Shown: positions 2,450-29,844 of the stretch, one piece after another
Layout of the letters: each line of letters opens with the position of its first letter
Numbering within the stretch: position 1 is the stretch's first letter
DNA from: a virus
DNA length: 46,958 nt
Virus record (IMG/VR): IMGVR_UViG_3300042731_006922
Span: 1 to 46,958 of that record
Strand: one strand, 5' to 3'
The notes under the pieces: model-generated
Told to the model about the DNA's origin: nothing
What the model saw: the letters and a program-made list of their open reading frames with translations, nothing else
Databases searched by the model: none
Program-made: the position numbers and the translations under genes

Positions 2450-2725
2450 TTAATCTATATCTATTTTACCGTTTATATGAACAGAATGTATATTACCTGG
2501 CATCTCTGCCTCCATTTCAATATCTGCCATACCTAACAATTGTTGTATTATAGATAGTTCTGTAAAATTATTAATATTTTGATATGCATACATCTTTTTA
2601 GTATAATCTCTAATTGCGAGTTGTAGAAGATATACTTGATTTTCTGTAAGTTGTTGAGATCCTATGATAACAGGAGTTTTTTCCCAAACATCTCTTTCTT
2701 GTAAAATAAATTTATCATTTTCCAT
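2450..2725 (-). CDS. hypothetical protein, member of the small-gene array
   Basis: Start moved to ATG 2723-2725, which lies inside the conserved junction GGTGAAAATTATG. Confidence 0.55.
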   Translation of the reverse strand: MENDKFILQERDVWEKTPVIIGSQQLTENQVYLLQLAIRDYTKKMYAYQNINNFTELSIIQQLLGMADIEMEAEMPGNIHSVHINGKIDID

Positions 2726-2730
2726 AATTT

Positions 2731-2931
2731 TCACCCAATTTTTAAAAGTATCCAACCTATTTTTGAGTTATCTTCAGTTTTTATATAATAAGTATCTTCT
2801 AAACTTACGTCTTGAGCTATAGCGCCTTCATTTTCAAATATTCGATTTTCAGGACTACCCTTTATAAGGTATACTCTTAATTTGCCTCGTTCATCAAAAT
2901 GCATTTTTTTAAGATATTTTACTAAATCCAT
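2731..2931 (-). CDS. hypothetical protein, member of the small-gene array
   Basis: ATG 2929-2931 inside junction motif; its TGA stop lies inside the next junction motif. Confidence 0.55.
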   Translation of the reverse strand: MDLVKYLKKMHFDERGKLRVYLIKGSPENRIFENEGAIAQDVSLEDTYYIKTEDNSKIGWILLKIG

Positions 2932-2936
2932 AATTT

Positions 2937-3143
2937 TCACCTACCCATAAATCTACCATTAATTTCTAATTTGTTATTAAAGTACATAGTAAGTTTTTTT
3001 AAATTATTTTTGTCAACGTAACCTTTTAATGACAGTTTAACCACCTCTCTTTCTATCCATTGTTCATAAGAAAGAGAATATACATCTAATAATTCAATAG
3101 ATTTTTCGTCATACAATAATTTAATAGAATTGTCTTTACTCAT
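2937..3143 (-). CDS. hypothetical protein, member of the small-gene array
   Basis: ATG 3141-3143 inside junction motif; N-terminal half resembles the product of 3170-3352. Confidence 0.55.
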   Translation of the reverse strand: MSKDNSIKLLYDEKSIELLDVYSLSYEQWIEREVVKLSLKGYVDKNNLKKLTMYFNNKLEINGRFMGR

Positions 3144-3169
3144 AATTTTCACCTTAAGTATATTTTGAA

Positions 3170-3352
3170 TTAATGTATATTAAGAATATTTATGAATTTT
3201 TCTAAATCCATTAAATTAATATCGATATTTAAAGTAATTCTAATCGAATCTCCTTTTAAAACTTTTTTTTTACTAAAACCTGCATAACTAACAGAGGCTA
3301 TATGTATTATTTCTACAGATTCTTTATCATTATTGATAGAAGGATTTGACAT
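3170..3352 (-). CDS. hypothetical protein, member of the small-gene array
   Basis: ATG 3350-3352 inside junction motif. Confidence 0.55.
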   Translation of the reverse strand: MSNPSINNDKESVEIIHIASVSYAGFSKKKVLKGDSIRITLNIDINLMDLEKFINILNIH

Positions 3353-3367
3353 AATTTTCACCCATTC

Positions 3368-3568
3368 TCAGGCATTTCTGTTAATTTCATTTTGTGTCCA
3401 CTCTCTATAATTTTCCCAATTTCCGTGTTCGCCTACTTTATACCCATATTTTGAAACTATATTTTCAATTTCATTCATCATCTGATTGATTTGGTTAGGG
3501 GTTGCTTGAGCAGTTTTAATCTCTAACTTTAAACCTATATCACCCATGGACTTATATTTAATTTTCAT
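3368..3568 (-). CDS. hypothetical protein, member of the small-gene array
   Basis: ATG 3566-3568 inside the variant junction GGTTAAAATTATG. Confidence 0.55.
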   Translation of the reverse strand: MKIKYKSMGDIGLKLEIKTAQATPNQINQMMNEIENIVSKYGYKVGEHGNWENYREWTQNEINRNA

Positions 3569-11601: not shown

Positions 11602-14600
11602 ATGCCTATTATTGGAGGGGGAGGTATAATAGGGGGAGGCAGCGGTGGCGCGTCTCCTGACACAACCACTTTTGAGCGTATACCATATAAAGATGGTGTG
11701 GGTGTATTTGCCAATTCACCGTTATATTTTGATACTTCTGAAGATAAGGTTGTTTGTGATGTTACTTTCGAAGTTCCTAGTGGTACTCTCGCCATAGGTG
11801 AAACAACTAACTTATCTGCTGGTGGTACGTTAATTTTATCAAATGAAATAAATGATACAAATACTTACACCATATCATCTGAATGGGATTCTACGGGTTC
11901 ATCTGAACCTGTTTATTTAGATTTAGATCCTGAATCAATACTAGATATTCAATTAGATTTTAGTCAGACTATAACAGCTAATCCTCTAACGTGGTCTATT
12001 ACAGGTACTGTCATACTTCCGAAAAAGCGTCAAGTAAATGCTTTCCGAATAAAAACCGGAGCGGCAATGACCAATGTTCGGTTAAGACTTGTTGATAATA
12101 TAACCGGTATACCAGTTCGATATATACCCTCAAAAGCTGATTGGAACGCTAGCACGGGGTTAAGTTTAATACCTGGAGATAATGAGCTTAATTTTGTTTC
12201 AACAGCACCTAGTACTCCTGGTCAATATAATATAGGTGTAAATCCTTATATTATTGAAAATGGTCAACAAATTGATATTGAATTAAGGGCTGATACTGTT
12301 TCTATACTAGGTGATGCATTAGGGGAACCCTACCAGCAGGCAGATATTCAAGATTATCTTGAAACGTCAATGATTATTAATCCTGCTGGAATTGATAGGG
12401 CTATTCAATATAATAATGCGGGCGTTTTTGGTGGAGAGGGTAATTTTATATATACAAGACCTTCGGATGTCCCTATCCTGACATTAGAATCTAATAGTTT
12501 AACTGGTGGCGCTGAAATAAAATTTAATGATTCTACGACAGCAACTAAAGTTTCTTTTAGATTTTTTGAAGCTGAAAACAACTTTATTTTGAATACTGCA
12601 ACAGATATAGAATCATTTTTATTTTTTGGAGACAATCTAAATGTAAATGTAGTGGGTGATTATACGATAACTTTCCAAAATGATGAAGCGGTTTTTTTAA
12701 TCAATGATTTTGCGGGAGGTTATGCTTTTTCTTTTAGTAATGCGTTAGCAAATACCTTACCTTTATTAGTTCTAACTAAAACAGGGCCTCAAGGCGGGAC
12801 TTCTCAAATCTTTACTAGTACTGTATCACCTGAGGGGGCTATATCCGGTAACGGGGGCGATCTTTGCATTGTTGACGCGGGGGTGAATTCTGACTTTTTT
12901 CTAAAAAGATCTGATGGGGGTAATACTGGATGGGTTGATTTTCTTCATAGTACAAGCGGGGTAAAGGGCCCGGCAACCTCTACAGATAATGCTATAGCAA
13001 CATGGAATGGCGTGGATGGAAGTGCTATAAATGATTCATATGCTTCAGTTGTATCTGATGCGAATACAACGCATTTATACGTAAATTCAGTATCAGCTAG
13101 CGGACAGTCTCTTCTTACTTTACGTAATAATGCCTCTGCTAATAGATTCTCTATCAATTATAATCAAGCTTTAAACGATGTATTTATAAGTTCTTCTTCT
13201 ACTGTACCTATTTTTGTTAATTCTGGAAATAGGTTGTTACTTGAAGCAAATGAAAGAATTGATATTGAAGCATTAGGAGATTACGCTATAACTATAGATA
13301 ATGATGAGGCGACTTTTTCAATTAGTACATCTACTAATGACTATTATTTTAGTTTTAGCAACACCTTAGACGGAACTGTACCTCTTATGAATTTTGCGAA
13401 AGCAGGACTTAATGGGGGTTCTTCAAAATGGTTTTTTTCAACAGTATCTCCTGAAACGGTTATAACAGGTAATGGAGGAGATCTTTGTATAGTTAATGCG
13501 GGAGTGAATTCAAATATATACCTTAAATTACAAAATGCAACTAATACTAACTGGCAATCATTATTAGGTGATGTCATAGGTCCTGCTACTTCTACCGATA
13601 GTGCAGTTGCTCTTTTTGATGGTACGACAGGAAAACTTTTAAAATCCTCTTCATTAGTTACTGTCAGTGAAGCTACACAGACGGAATTAAGATTAAAGTC
13701 TCCTAGCGCTACTTTAGGATCTCAAATAGTATTTGAAAGTTTTGGTGGAGGCAATCTTACACTTTTTCAATATGATGAAAATGCCTTAGAAACGTCTTTA
13801 ATATTAACTGGAACTTTGCATTCTTTTAATTTAGAAACGACCGGATTCATAGATTTTAGAGCTATCGATGATGATGATATTAGACTTAGAAACGATAGTT
13901 CAAGTTATACTATTTACGGTTCAACACAGAGTTACCTTCATCAAATAACGAACAATCAGCCTAATACGAATGCTCTTATTCGATTTTCTCAAACAGGTGT
14001 TAATGGAGGTTCTTCTGACATACATTTCAGTACTGTAGCACCAGAAGGAGTAATCTCTGGAGTAGGAGGTGCTTTATGTCTAGTTAAAGCCGGTATAAAT
14101 TCAGATTTATATATTAAAAGAACTGACACAGGCAATACCGGTTGGGCAGATTTCTTGCATGGGGCAAGCGGGGTTCAAGGGCCAGCAGTTTCGGTTGATA
14201 ATGCTATAGCTACTTGGGACGGTACAGATGGATTAACTCTTAATAATACTACTGTTTATGTAGACTCAGATGTAAATAGTACTTTTTTATATGTTGATAA
14301 TATTACTGCAAGTGGGCAATCGAGCATAAATCTTAGAACAAATGCAGGGGCGTCAAGATTTATTGCAAGATATAATCAGACATTAAATGATGTTTTTTTA
14401 ATTAGTACTACGGGAGTTGATTTTTTTGTAACTTCAGGAGGTAGATTAGATCTCGGGGGCGCGGGAGTTGTAGTATTAAATACTACAACAAATAACACTG
14501 TTACTATTGCAAATAATGATGCTACCTTTTTAGTAAATGATTCTGCCGGTAATTATACTTTTGATTTTTCGAATAGTGCTATAGGGACTAATCCTCTTTT

Positions 14601-15711
14601 AAGTTTTCGAAAAACTGGTCTTTTTGGAGGTACTTCTAGATTGTTTGTTACGTCAACTTCTCCCTTAGGCAGTATATCTGCCAATGGAGGGGATTTGGCT
14701 ATTATTGACGCTGGCATACTTTCTAATTTATATCTAAAAAGAGTGGACGGGGGCACCGGGGGCTGGAACGTATGTATTACTAGTGCAACTGAAAGTTCAA
14801 CATTAAACGCAATACCTTCTTTTGACGTGACAACAGGCAATTCCTTAACTCCCATAAATACAGCTACATTACAAGCGGATACTACTAGTACATTTATTGA
14901 CTTGAGACCAGTTACTTCAGCAGGTAATGCGGAAATTAATTATAGAACTACCGGCGGCGCTTTAAAGGCGCAATTATACTATGATGAAGATGTTGATACA
15001 TATAATATAGAAACTGATACAGCAGCATTAAATTTTGGTAACTTTGGAGGGCCACTACGATTTACTAGTATAAGTGCGGATTCTGATTTATATATTCGAA
15101 ATGCGACTCCCGTTGGAATAGTAACTGGAAATCCTGGTGATCTATCGATTGTTGCAAGTGGTACTTCATCTGGAATATATGTTCATGAGGGTAGTGCTGC
15201 AAATAATACCGATTGGTATAAAGTCATAACCAAAGGTAATGATACATCTCTTGCAAGTATTTTTAGATTAGATGGTGACGGTAATAGTCCACCACGAACA
15301 TTATCTGCAATTCCAGTTCAAATTATCGATTTCACCACAGATGGAGATGATAACGGGTTACTTACTTCAGATCAAGCAAATAATGAAATAGTAATTGATT
15401 CTGTGGTGGATACGGTAAATGGTGATTTATATGAAATTAGTGTAACTATGTCTGTTCAATGTAGTAATACCAATAGAGAAGTTATACTACAAATATATTA
15501 TAGTAATGGTGTAACTGACGTAGCAACAAATATTCGAACACGGAGTTTTTTTGACAGTGCAAATGAGTTTTACAGTAAAAAAATATCTGGACCTGCTCGA
15601 GGGCCGTCAACAATAACTGGTACAGGAGCATTTAAAGTATTTTTTTCTAGTACAGACACGGGTTCACTTATTTTTAGAGAATTGATATTTACTGCCAAGC
15701 GGTTATTATAG
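11602..15711 (+). CDS. giant repeat-containing fibre or surface protein (1369 aa)
   Basis: Gly-rich N-terminus. Five recurrences of GxGGDLxIVxAG...Y(L/I)K...G(W)... . G/S/T/N-rich composition typical of fibres. Confidence 0.7.
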   Translation: MPIIGGGGIIGGGSGGASPDTTTFERIPYKDGVGVFANSPLYFDTSEDKVVCDVTFEVPSGTLAIGETTNLSAGGTLILSNEINDTNTYTISSEWDSTGSSEPVYLDLDPESILDIQLDFSQTITANPLTWSITGTVILPKKRQVNAFRIKTGAAMTNVRLRLVDNITGIPVRYIPSKADWNASTGLSLIPGDNELNFVSTAPSTPGQYNIGVNPYIIENGQQIDIELRADTVSILGDALGEPYQQADIQDYLETSMIINPAGIDRAIQYNNAGVFGGEGNFIYTRPSDVPILTLESNSLTGGAEIKFNDSTTATKVSFRFFEAENNFILNTATDIESFLFFGDNLNVNVVGDYTITFQNDEAVFLINDFAGGYAFSFSNALANTLPLLVLTKTGPQGGTSQIFTSTVSPEGAISGNGGDLCIVDAGVNSDFFLKRSDGGNTGWVDFLHSTSGVKGPATSTDNAIATWNGVDGSAINDSYASVVSDANTTHLYVNSVSASGQSLLTLRNNASANRFSINYNQALNDVFISSSSTVPIFVNSGNRLLLEANERIDIEALGDYAITIDNDEATFSISTSTNDYYFSFSNTLDGTVPLMNFAKAGLNGGSSKWFFSTVSPETVITGNGGDLCIVNAGVNSNIYLKLQNATNTNWQSLLGDVIGPATSTDSAVALFDGTTGKLLKSSSLVTVSEATQTELRLKSPSATLGSQIVFESFGGGNLTLFQYDENALETSLILTGTLHSFNLETTGFIDFRAIDDDDIRLRNDSSSYTIYGSTQSYLHQITNNQPNTNALIRFSQTGVNGGSSDIHFSTVAPEGVISGVGGALCLVKAGINSDLYIKRTDTGNTGWADFLHGASGVQGPAVSVDNAIATWDGTDGLTLNNTTVYVDSDVNSTFLYVDNITASGQSSINLRTNAGASRFIARYNQTLNDVFLISTTGVDFFVTSGGRLDLGGAGVVVLNTTTNNTVTIANNDATFLVNDSAGNYTFDFSNSAIGTNPLLSFRKTGLFGGTSRLFVTSTSPLGSISANGGDLAIIDAGILSNLYLKRVDGGTGGWNVCITSATESSTLNAIPSFDVTTGNSLTPINTATLQADTTSTFIDLRPVTSAGNAEINYRTTGGALKAQLYYDEDVDTYNIETDTAALNFGNFGGPLRFTSISADSDLYIRNATPVGIVTGNPGDLSIVASGTSSGIYVHEGSAANNTDWYKVITKGNDTSLASIFRLDGDGNSPPRTLSAIPVQIIDFTTDGDDNGLLTSDQANNEIVIDSVVDTVNGDLYEISVTMSVQCSNTNREVILQIYYSNGVTDVATNIRTRSFFDSANEFYSKKISGPARGPSTITGTGAFKVFFSSTDTGSLIFRELIFTAKRLL
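12390..15190 (+). repeat. In-frame tandem repeats within the 1369-aa ORF
   Basis: Anchor motif starts at 12847, 13468, 14059, 14680 and 15127, giving spacings of 621, 591, 621 and 447 nt. Alternate units are each 1212 nt apart. Confidence 0.85.
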
Positions 15712-26007: not shown

Positions 26008-26427
26008 TTGGCAATAGAACAAAAAAGTAGAGAGATAGATGGAGTAACATATTATGTAACTCAAATGGATGGTATACGAGCTTTAGATATTCAACTTAGA
26101 TTATTAAAAATTTTAGGTCCTGCACTTCCGAAAATATTAGGTTTAAAAAGTTTTAATATTTCAGATATAAAAAATACTTTAGAAAAAATAACCCCTGATA
26201 TGTTAATTGAAGTTTTACAACCTTTAATAGATAATTTTGATGATCAACTTGTAAAAAGTTTTGTTTTATCTTTATTTAGTAAGGGTGTATTTTTAGATAA
26301 ACCCACTATTGAAGGAAAAATGATTAAACAACCTTTAGATATTTTAAATGATTTTAGAAGCAAACCTTTTACAATATGGAATGTGGCTCGATTTATTCTA
26401 GAGGTAAATCTCGCAATGGGGGAGTAA
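26008..26427 (+). CDS. tail assembly chaperone (G-like)
   Basis: Position between the tube and tape measure genes; TTG start in the track. Confidence 0.55.
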   Translation: MAIEQKSREIDGVTYYVTQMDGIRALDIQLRLLKILGPALPKILGLKSFNISDIKNTLEKITPDMLIEVLQPLIDNFDDQLVKSFVLSLFSKGVFLDKPTIEGKMIKQPLDILNDFRSKPFTIWNVARFILEVNLAMGE

Positions 26428-26660
26428 AAAGGGTAAATTTTGCCCATTACCGAACATCTTATAAAGGTAGAACTGCCGAAGAGTTAAACGTACATCCCCT
26501 TATATCTTATTTAGTTAATGGAAAGATGGCAACATTATATGAATTACAAACCATATACAATTTTGCAGATCTTTTTATTTTAAAAGAAATATTAGATATA
26601 CAGTTAGAAGCCGAATATATAGCAGCACAAAAAAGAAAAAGGAAAAGTAAAAGTGGCTAA
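26376..26660 (+). CDS. -1 frame extension of the tail chaperone (GT-like product)
   Basis: Overlapping ORF in the -1 frame relative to 26008-26427. It has no convincing SD of its own and ends inside the tape measure start region. Confidence 0.45.
   Translation: MECGSIYSRGKSRNGGVKRVNFAHYRTSYKGRTAEELNVHPLISYLVNGKMATLYELQTIYNFADLFILKEILDIQLEAEYIAAQKRKRKSKSG
26418..26422 (+). other. G5 run, candidate -1 slippery site
   Basis: ATG GGG GAG TAA. Gly-tRNA on GGG (26419-26421) can re-pair on 26418-20, two codons before the stop. Confidence 0.35.
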
Positions 26661-28703: not shown

Positions 28704-28993
28704 TGGAATTAATTGGAACATTGCCGGTTACATCTAATCCGGATGAAGTATATAATATAGTAATATTAGATACAGTTTATTCAATACGACAATTATATAA
28801 TACACTAGGATTTTGGACTTTAAGTATATCAGACGAAGATCTAAACCCGATTATTACCGGAATAAAAGTGGTAGCTGGAATTTTTATATTAAATCAATAT
28901 CCTCAAATTAGGTTTAATTTATATATACGAGATGAAATAGAACCCACACGAGATAATTTTGATAAATTAATTATAGAGGTATACAGCAAATAA
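28703..28993 (+). CDS. small baseplate-associated protein (putative)
   Basis: Gene order; ATG overlaps the upstream stop codon by one base (TAATG junction). Confidence 0.45.
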   Translation: MELIGTLPVTSNPDEVYNIVILDTVYSIRQLYNTLGFWTLSISDEDLNPIITGIKVVAGIFILNQYPQIRFNLYIRDEIEPTRDNFDKLIIEVYSK

Positions 28994-29844
28994 TGTATTT
29001 AAGAAGCGCAAGACTTGAAACATCCACTATAAGTATTGAGGATTTACGAATAAGTTTTAGAGTAGAAAAATCCTTGATTGGATATCCAAATTTAGCTACT
29101 ATAAGAATTTATAATTTAAGTGAATCAACTAGACAAGAAATAAAAGAAGAAGGATTGTTAGTAAGATTATATGCTGGTTATGATACTACTCCATTATTAT
29201 TTTCAGGAGATATTATTAATGTCATACATCGATATGAGCAACCTGATTGGGTAACAGAAATTTATGGTGGAGATACTTTTAGATCTTGGAATACCTCTAC
29301 AATTAATACAACATTGACAGCAGGAGCCACACAAGAGCAGATATATGATACTTTAGTCGGTTCTCTTATTGGAGTTATTAAAGGCATTACTGAAGGGCTT
29401 ACACGATGTATAACAGGAAAAAGATCGCTCGCACGTACATTTCAATTGAGTGGAAGTATAAAAGAAGGGTTAAGAGTATTAACAGAGCAATGAGGTTTTG
29501 ATTATTCTATCAATGAAGGTATCATTGAAACTACAACTAAAGATCAACCACTTACTGATGTACCTGTAGTAATAATAAATCAAAAATCTGGAATGATAGG
29601 ATCGCCGGAAAGAACTGATATCGGAGTAACAGTGAAGAATTTACTTTTACCTGAGCTTAAACTTGCAAGACGAATTAAAATAGAAAGTTTAACAGAAAAA
29701 ATAAATATAGGTAATTTAAATTTTAGAGAAGTCCCACCCATTCGTAATGAAGGAGTATACCGAATAGATAAATTAGTTCATGAAGGGGATACACGAGGAA
29801 ATATATGGCAAACAACTATAACGGGAAGAAATTTTAATGTCTGA
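28993..29844 (+). CDS. baseplate hub protein (XkdQ / Mu gp44 / P2 gpD-like) interrupted by an in-frame TGA at 29491-29493
   Basis: Track ORFs 28993-29493 and 29593-29844 share one frame. The 99 nt between them have no stop. The ATG at 29593 has no SD. Combined length is 283 codons. Confidence 0.6.

Follow-up and report, generated by a model that had tools for sequence, protein, structure and literature searches.

A candidate selenocysteine codon in the baseplate hub gene of AT-rich environmental myophages

We analysed a stretch of viral DNA of 46,958 nucleotides (positions 1 to 46,958 of the IMG/VR record IMGVR_UViG_3300042731_006922), hereafter called the window, which makes up nearly all of a 47,127-bp contig of the Joint Genome Institute (JGI). 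The gene of the baseplate hub in this window is interrupted at codon 167 by an in-frame UGA. We consider it probable (about 0.65) that this UGA is decoded by insertion of selenocysteine (Sec) through the SelB machinery of the host. A ribosome reaching the UGA at 29491-29493 would encounter a hairpin at 29510-29528, and the hairpin would recruit host SelB carrying Sec-tRNA(Sec). Sec would be inserted at residue 167, and translation of 116 more codons would yield the full hub of 283 residues. Binding of SelB to the hub hairpin is presumed here, as is a host possessing selA, selB, selC and selD. Sec167 may form a selenylsulfide with Cys139, in place of the Cys139-Cys167 pair of other phages. An earlier reading, made from the letters of this DNA alone (the sequence-only reading), had listed programmed read-through among several explanations. 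This was right only in a broad sense; selenocysteine was not named there, though the proposed alignment of the residue at the stop points to it.

The open reading frames (ORFs) 28993-29493, of 166 residues, and 29593-29844, of 83 residues, share a single frame, and no stop other than the TGA at 29491-29493 separates them. The next 33 codons are open, as had been noticed from the sequence; they read GFDYSINEGIIETTTKDQPLTDVPVVIINQKSG and continue into MIGSPERT. Counting the UGA, the gene has 283 sense codons, followed by a terminal TGA at 29842-29844. The joined product matches phrog_196 with E=1.8e-57 over residues 12-278, without a break at the stop. It also matches the Pfam family PF22759 (E217_GP41) with E=1.7e-13 over residues 15-233, scoring 50.9 bits at a gathering threshold of 27, and relatives carry precomputed PF22759 assignments. 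The profile of the hub family matches solved hubs across the UGA site, namely 9zd7 gp85, phi92 gp137, Pam3 gp19 and E217 gp41. The predicted product is a hub of the E217 gp41 / Pam3 gp19 / phi92 gp137 type, which corrects the label XkdQ / Mu gp44 / P2 gpD given in the sequence-only reading. The genes are ordered as tape measure (PhageMin_Tail), Dit_like, Pam3 gp18-like plug, hub, spike N-domain protein, Sheath_initiator and Baseplate_J; by these domain assignments this is an E217/Pam3-like myovirus tail module. No close phage was found in GenBank at the DNA level. Homologues with Cys at the site make only the long form. The earlier proposal of a single hub gene that needs UGA decoding agrees with the uninterrupted homologues of 283-290 residues and with purifying selection on the 33 codons between the two ORFs, described below.

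The residue aligned with the stop was determined in 120 database homologues, most of them 283-290 residues long. It is Cys in 115, Phe in one and apparently Trp in two, and it is missing in two truncated proteins. The two Trp residues, in proteins P0001 and P0002, were considered as a hint of UGA read as Trp and rejected: the DNA has TGA at this position, and the W results from gene calling under code 4. P0001 corresponds to positions 30-884 of contig L100 and P0002 to positions 1042-1944 of L101; both public proteins were called under code 4, and neither translates from its own contig under code 11. In P0002 the code-4 call runs through the true TGA stop and creates a false C-terminal tail of 17 residues. 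With the TGA state resolved, the tally becomes 115 Cys, four TGA and one Phe, and there is no real Trp or Gly among the residues that the sequence-only reading had suggested looking for. No genuine TGG was found at site 167 in about 150 homologues. This speaks against decoding as Trp, because one TGA-to-TGG transition would lift the handicap of the stop.

Cys139 occurs together with Cys or TGA at position 167 in 40 of 41 close relatives. Both Cys139 and the Cys at 167 are absent from all 16 distant homologues, which also lack the loop bearing Cys139. This suggests that residues 139 and 167 form a pair, either a disulfide or a metal site, and the Cys139-Cys/Sec167 pair appears to be specific to the AT-rich environmental subfamily. 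The only homologue with neither Cys nor TGA at 167 is P0118 (290 residues, Logan), where Phe occupies the site; there Cys139 is also replaced, by Leu. The C-terminus of P0118 resembles that of the TGA-bearing L106.

The sequence-only reading had proposed a search for the same interruption in related phages, and it is present in 10 other contigs, from other samples. Together with the window this makes 11 distinct phage genes with TGA at hub codon 167, having 53-92% amino acid identity. The carriers are the window and L003; L018, L019, L020, L022 and L030 (IMG/VR); L100, L101 and L106 (Logan); and L105 (NCBI assembly). Sources of TGA-bearing contigs include JGI 3300037793, IMG/VR 3300033146, 3300022217, 3300021347 and 3300017598, the runs SRR22923173, SRR16123813, SRR26538806 and SRR14699982, and GCA_024449895.1. 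Those beyond L003 were found by pattern scans, by tblastn-confirmed loci and from truncated database proteins. A scan of metagenomes for the pattern recovered only two contigs that were already known. Every TGA gene contains one internal stop and no more, and its C-terminal part is open and conserved. L003 comes from a different Sequence Read Archive run and has 83.6% nucleotide identity to the window, with TGA at the same codon. In the 33 codons following the stop, the two differ by seven synonymous and three conservative nonsynonymous changes, and in the C-terminal part beyond them by 24 synonymous versus nine nonsynonymous changes. This divergence indicates that the downstream codons are under purifying selection.

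In the bootstrap analysis the group of the window and L003 had 100% support and a six-member TGA group had 85%. With nine of the TGA genes in the analysis, a single clade holding all of them appeared in only 3 of 100 bootstraps; the TGA groups stand as far apart as they stand from relatives with a Cys codon. This points to at least 3-4 deep TGA lineages (53-84% amino acid identity), with an effective independent number of about 3-4. A separate case is L053 (IMGVR_UViG_3300033153_005012), where the hub match at 2594-3471 has 18 stops in its frame; this probably reflects a copy that is frameshifted or degraded, or else a tblastn match joined wrongly.

The hairpin downstream of the UGA has a 7-bp stem and a loop of five nucleotides. 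It starts 16 nucleotides after the UGA, so that the spacing from UGA to loop is 23 nucleotides. It appears in the minimum free energy (MFE) fold and is the only consensus element produced by RNAalifold. The exact pattern UCAAUGA-N5-UCAUUGA stands at the identical offset in all 11 TGA genes. Among 32 relatives with a Cys codon (TGY), the exact hairpin is found in one, L025, and seven pairs in register are found in three. The linkage between hairpin and TGA (11/11 vs 1/32) has a Fisher p=2e-9, uncorrected for phylogeny. The last two TGA genes were located by the length of the truncated product alone, without reference to the hairpin, and both carry it. In the reverse direction, 2.9 million IMG/VR contigs were scanned for the hairpin in its context, with the third base of the codon left free; this returned five TGA and one TGT.

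The stem is conserved at positions where the encoded protein leaves freedom. Within the TGA set, third-position conservation is 1.0 in the stem and 0.28 in the loop, and at those sites it is 0.32-0.58 in the Cys-codon set. Of 277 seven-codon segments along the gene, 173-179 has the highest third-position conservation when the TGA genes are compared, a signal that the Cys-codon set lacks. Codon 173 encodes Ile or Val and codon 177 encodes Ile, Val or Leu, and the codon is always xUC at both. Such codons are rare in the genome of the window, where ATC makes up 7% of Ile, GTC 7% of Val and CTC 3% of Leu codons. As judged from these aligned codons, the conservation pattern is that of a selected RNA stem-loop. 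The loops vary among the TGA genes (AGGUA, UGGAA, CGGGA, UGGAC, AGGUG, CGGUG), and in four of them the outer loop bases can pair (U-A in three, C-G in one), which gives 8 bp and a loop of three nucleotides.

The only TGT relative with the exact hairpin is L025, also recorded as L102 (IMGVR_UViG_3300033145_003126), where codons 167-179 contain UCAAUGA-AGGAG-UCAUUGA. This gene may be an intermediate that is pre-adapted, or it may have reverted from TGA. We also considered a lower stem enclosing the apical hairpin, formed by UGAGG and Pro-Leu codons (CCUC or CCCUUA) about 60 nucleotides from the UGA. This element was rejected: it is possible in six of the 11 genes (L019, L030, L100, L101, L105, L106), not in the window or L003, and shows no consistent covariation.

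The features were compared with the published consensus of the bacterial selenocysteine insertion sequence (bSECIS), which has a loop of 3-9 nucleotides, an upper stem of 4-16 bp, G in the first two loop positions, a UGA-to-loop spacing of 16-37 nucleotides and an MFE at or below -7.5 kcal/mol (PMC13188914). The hub hairpins have loops of 3-5 nucleotides, upper stems of 7-8 bp and a spacing of 23 nucleotides in all 11 genes. A G in the first two loop positions, followed by another G, is present in all 11 (loop form N-G-G-N-N), and the 63-nucleotide folds of these genes have an MFE of -8.5 to -16.4. The predicted hairpin is within the published consensus. Taken together, the in-frame UGA, the Cys homologues, the consensus stem-loop and the linkage of this stem-loop to the UGA forms are what computational searches for selenoproteins ordinarily look for. 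To our knowledge, the binding of SelB with Sec-tRNA(Sec) to a SECIS element is the one established mechanism in bacteria that couples a hairpin in a coding region to specific decoding of UGA. The features are listed in Table 1.

Table 1. Features of the interrupted hub gene in the window
Feature	Position	Strand	Description
Complete baseplate hub gene	28993..29844	+	One frame with a single internal stop; unbroken phrog_196 and Pfam E217_GP41 matches
Cys139 codon (TGT), candidate partner of residue 167	29407..29409	+	Cys in 119/121 aligned sequences
In-frame UGA, codon 167, proposed selenocysteine codon	29491..29493	+	Aligned with Cys; same codon is TGA in 10 other contigs
33 codons lacking an own start codon, whose translation depends on decoding of the UGA	29494..29592	+	Divergence mostly synonymous; match the hub profile directly after the stop
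SECIS-like hairpin	29510..29528	+	5' arm 29510-29516 UCAAUGA, loop 29517-29521 AGGUA, 3' arm 29522-29528 UCAUUGA
Hub C-terminal part, beginning at the conserved internal Met201 and ending at the true stop	29593..29844	+	In the frame of the N-terminal part; no Shine-Dalgarno sequence upstream

Insertion of Sec would require a host with the corresponding genes. In GTDB, the contigs with hubs more than 35% identical belong only to Campylobacterota or Sulfurimonas metagenome-assembled genomes (MAGs). The contig L017, from a Sulfurimonas MAG, contained short phage-like ORFs and no clear host genes in the part examined. The window has 30.6% GC and the hub-carrying phage family 30-39%, which is compatible with Campylobacterota or Sulfurimonas hosts. 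An attempt to assign the host by portal homologues was abandoned as uninformative; it gave scattered MAG labels (Nanoarchaeota, Desulfobacteraceae and others). Most epsilonproteobacterial species have a complete Sel system, and their SECIS elements are hairpins of 5-6 bp shortly after the UGA with an invariant G in the loop (PMC4607533). The trait is patchy: Sulfurimonas denitrificans has SelA/B/C/D and S. autotrophica lacks SelA/B/C (PMC4607533). Such patchiness within Sulfurimonas would fit the patchy distribution of TGA and TGY in the phage family. A low efficiency of Sec insertion might also be affordable for these phages: solved homologues of the hub have three chains per entry, and a hub trimer would need three copies per virion.

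Several points weigh against selenocysteine. Nearly all bacterial selenoproteins known to us are redox enzymes in which Sec sits in an active-site motif that can be recognised, and we know of no precedent for a structural protein of the virion whose partner Cys lies 28 residues away. All seven stem pairs are invariant, the RNAalifold covariation term is 0 and there are no compensatory changes, so that the structure is deduced from conservation of synonymous sites and not from covariation. The apical hairpin taken by itself is weak (-4.9 to -5.7 kcal/mol), and the 60-nucleotide fold of the window does not surpass shuffled sequences (z = -0.5). In the window, TGA triplets are followed nine times by a perfect 7-bp hairpin as a matter of chance; thus the hairpin is insignificant in a single genome, and the case rests on comparative conservation. 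Both G's of the loop belong to a conserved Gly codon and are not independent evidence. An Rfam scan of 29400-29650 with E up to 10 gave chance hits and no SECIS family. The Fisher test ignores phylogeny. Finally, the Campylobacterota host is a lead obtained from the binning of phage-like contigs into MAGs, and the sel genes of the host are presumed.

The alternative that survives best, although we regard it as unlikely, is read-through independent of SelB. The UGA would be read by a near-cognate tRNA, that for Trp or, with less likelihood, that for Cys or Arg, perhaps helped by the hairpin, giving much of the 166-residue product and little of the full-length one, though sufficient for three copies per virion. 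Of the stop codons UGA is the leakiest, and the A1 protein of phage Qbeta arises by UGA read-through. The hub is a low-copy trimer; the hairpin is short, AU-rich and without an Rfam SECIS match; and the Sec machinery of the host is itself presumed, all of which would suit this explanation. On the other hand, if Trp were acceptable at the site, TGG would be expected in some of the homologues, and the site is otherwise a near-invariant Cys coupled to Cys139. Moreover, the stop cuts the hub fold mid-way, and the short product has no obvious role, nor is it made by the relatives with Cys. We know of no structure-stimulated read-through in bacteria besides that by SECIS and SelB. If hairpin-assisted read-through without SelB did operate here, it would be a new recoding mechanism in bacteria.

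All other explanations, even taken together, are very improbable. One is that the locus makes two polypeptides, residues 1-166 and a C-terminal piece initiated at ATG 29593 or by re-initiation, and this we consider most doubtful. Gene callers do annotate ORFs of 166 and of 81-83 residues in every TGA-bearing contig. Two PHROGs of unknown function, phrog_38154 and phrog_23564, resemble half-hub families, each matching just one half of the hub, N-terminal or C-terminal; split annotations of interrupted hub genes in deposited phage genomes may lie at their origin. However, there is no in-frame ATG, GTG or TTG between the TGA and ATG 29593, and yet the protein sequence encoded by these 33 codons is conserved and fits the hub profile. 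Nor does a Shine-Dalgarno sequence precede ATG 29593, as the sequence-only reading had observed. Met201 is a nearly invariant internal residue of the intact homologues (GMIGSPE) and not a new start. Two separate products would leave the linkage of the hairpin with TGA unexplained. Homologues naturally divided at this point into two genes, each with its own ribosome-binding site, had been named as evidence that would count against a single hub, and no such pair was found among the related phages. A GenBank annotation of a split hub in Rosemountvirus was examined and rejected: the second feature is an overlapping upstream gene, and the hub, only about 29% identical, is intact.

Still less probable is a nonsense mutation in a defective or decaying genome, one of the possibilities raised by the sequence-only reading. 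TGT, TGC and TGG are each one mutation away from TGA, and metagenomic contigs may stem from phages that are not viable. It is difficult to reconcile this with a stop kept in 11 phages of several deep lineages, each with one stop only and an intact downstream frame under purifying selection. In addition, the neighbouring structural genes are intact and the hairpin is conserved only in the TGA carriers.

Reassignment of UGA throughout the genome, to Trp as in code 4 or to Gly as in code 25, or its suppression by a tRNA of the phage or host, is highly improbable. The genome is AT-rich, and some gene callers chose code 4 for relatives of this phage. But among the 12,107 codons of the window there are 128 TGG and only one in-frame TGA, and TGA terminates about 20 of its ORFs. 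The TGA stops listed in the sequence-only reading are correct; the list is incomplete, and several of the about 20 stops lie outside gene overlaps. Most of the TGA-ending ORFs would gain only 2-28 codons under read-through. Neither the window nor 11 related loci yielded any tRNA or suppressor tRNA gene, and 537 kb of related phage loci contained no other gene interrupted by TGA on the coding strand. At the site the homologues carry Cys, and neither Gly nor a genuine Trp occurs there; the false tail of P0002 is a product of code-4 calling. By these counts UGA serves elsewhere in the genome as an ordinary stop, and the explanations by a host with UGA as a sense codon and by a phage suppressor tRNA are rejected.

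An error of sequencing or assembly, also suggested earlier, has nothing specific to the site in its favour and is negligible: a 12.5-kb stretch is identical in the JGI and Logan assemblies (the two may share one sample), and TGA stands at the same codon in the 10 contigs from other samples and assemblers.

We also incline, somewhat less firmly than towards selenocysteine as such, to a more general picture. AT-rich environmental myophages would build Sec167 into a trimeric hub as part of a selenylsulfide, the codon being decoded by SelB via a minimal SECIS element encoded by the phage, and the switch from Cys to Sec, along with the hairpin, would have arisen or been retained in several deep lineages.

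Two other features of the window were recorded. Between the tube and tape measure genes, the ORF of a tail assembly chaperone (Phage_TAC_15, 26008-26427) overlaps an ORF of 94 residues (26376-26660) in the -1 frame; by its layout this is the usual arrangement for a chaperone frameshift. An ORF of 1369 residues (11602-15711) lies between the terminase and portal regions and has no significant Pfam domain, with a GA-like match below the threshold.

If confirmed, this would be the first selenoprotein in a bacteriophage particle, as far as our literature search reached. The viral selenoproteins in a review of viral recoding are the glutathione peroxidase (GPx) genes of poxviruses only (PMC8310308). 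Recent reviews of prokaryotic selenoproteomes and recent database papers are silent on phages, and no phage selenoprotein was found in the literature searched, in a search that was not exhaustive. The selenoproteome would be extended to bacteriophages and to a structural, non-catalytic protein, a rare non-enzymatic use of Sec. Infectivity, host range and productivity of these phages would be tied to an optional trait of the host, selABCD, and to the supply of selenium, which is a testable ecological prediction. The family would also provide a natural series of Cys/Sec pairs with a minimal, coding-embedded SECIS of 19 nucleotides, useful for studying the origin of Sec codons; the Cys form in L025 already has the hairpin. 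At present such hub genes are annotated wrongly: they appear as two ORFs or, if code 4 is used, as proteins that contain Trp and carry false extensions. A single codon of the Sec type mimics evidence for code 4, and thus virome pipelines that deduce recoded phages from split genes can be misled.

The hub shows similarities with several known systems. It has near full-length homology and the same gene order as the hubs E217 gp41 (PF22759), Pam3 gp19, phi92 gp137 and 9zd7 gp85. Unlike it, 9zd7 gp85 and phi92 gp137, which were aligned residue by residue, have no Cys at the position of residue 167, and phi92 gp137 also lacks Cys139. As in the recoded crAss-like and Lak phages with reassigned TAG or TGA, there is an in-frame stop in a late structural gene, and the calls are split under code 11. 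In those phages many genes are affected, usually with suppressor tRNAs, whereas here there is one codon in one gene, no tRNAs, and TGA as a normal stop. The A1 protein of Qbeta is likewise a phage virion component that requires UGA decoding. There the shorter form is itself the major coat protein, the inserted residue, Trp, does not matter and read-through adds an extra domain; in contrast, the stop in the hub falls within a single fold, stands in place of a conserved Cys and has a conserved hairpin coupled to it.

The poxvirus selenoproteins are a GPx1-like protein of molluscum contagiosum virus and a GPx4-like protein of fowlpox virus, the latter with the SECIS within the coding sequence (PMC8310308). 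These are virus-encoded genes in which UGA is redefined as Sec by host machinery, as proposed for the hub. They differ in being antioxidant enzymes captured from the host by eukaryotic viruses, with SECIS elements of the eukaryotic type, whereas the hub is a core structural gene of a bacterial virus, with a hairpin of the bacterial type and Sec that would have evolved from Cys. Bacterial selenoprotein genes, with E. coli fdhF as the prototype and Fdh, SelD and SelW in epsilonproteobacteria (PMC4607533), share with the hub an in-frame UGA in a conserved ORF with Cys homologues and a small downstream stem-loop, 16-37 nucleotides from the UGA, with G in the first two loop positions. Here, too, the hairpin is tied to the UGA forms, and UGA is an ordinary stop elsewhere. 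Unlike the fdhF-type genes, the hub encodes a structural protein of the phage virion with no recognisable redox motif and a candidate partner Cys 28 residues upstream; its hairpin is AU-rich, weak and without covariation, and the decoding machinery would be wholly borrowed from the host. The candidate would thus represent a known recoding machinery in a new biological setting.

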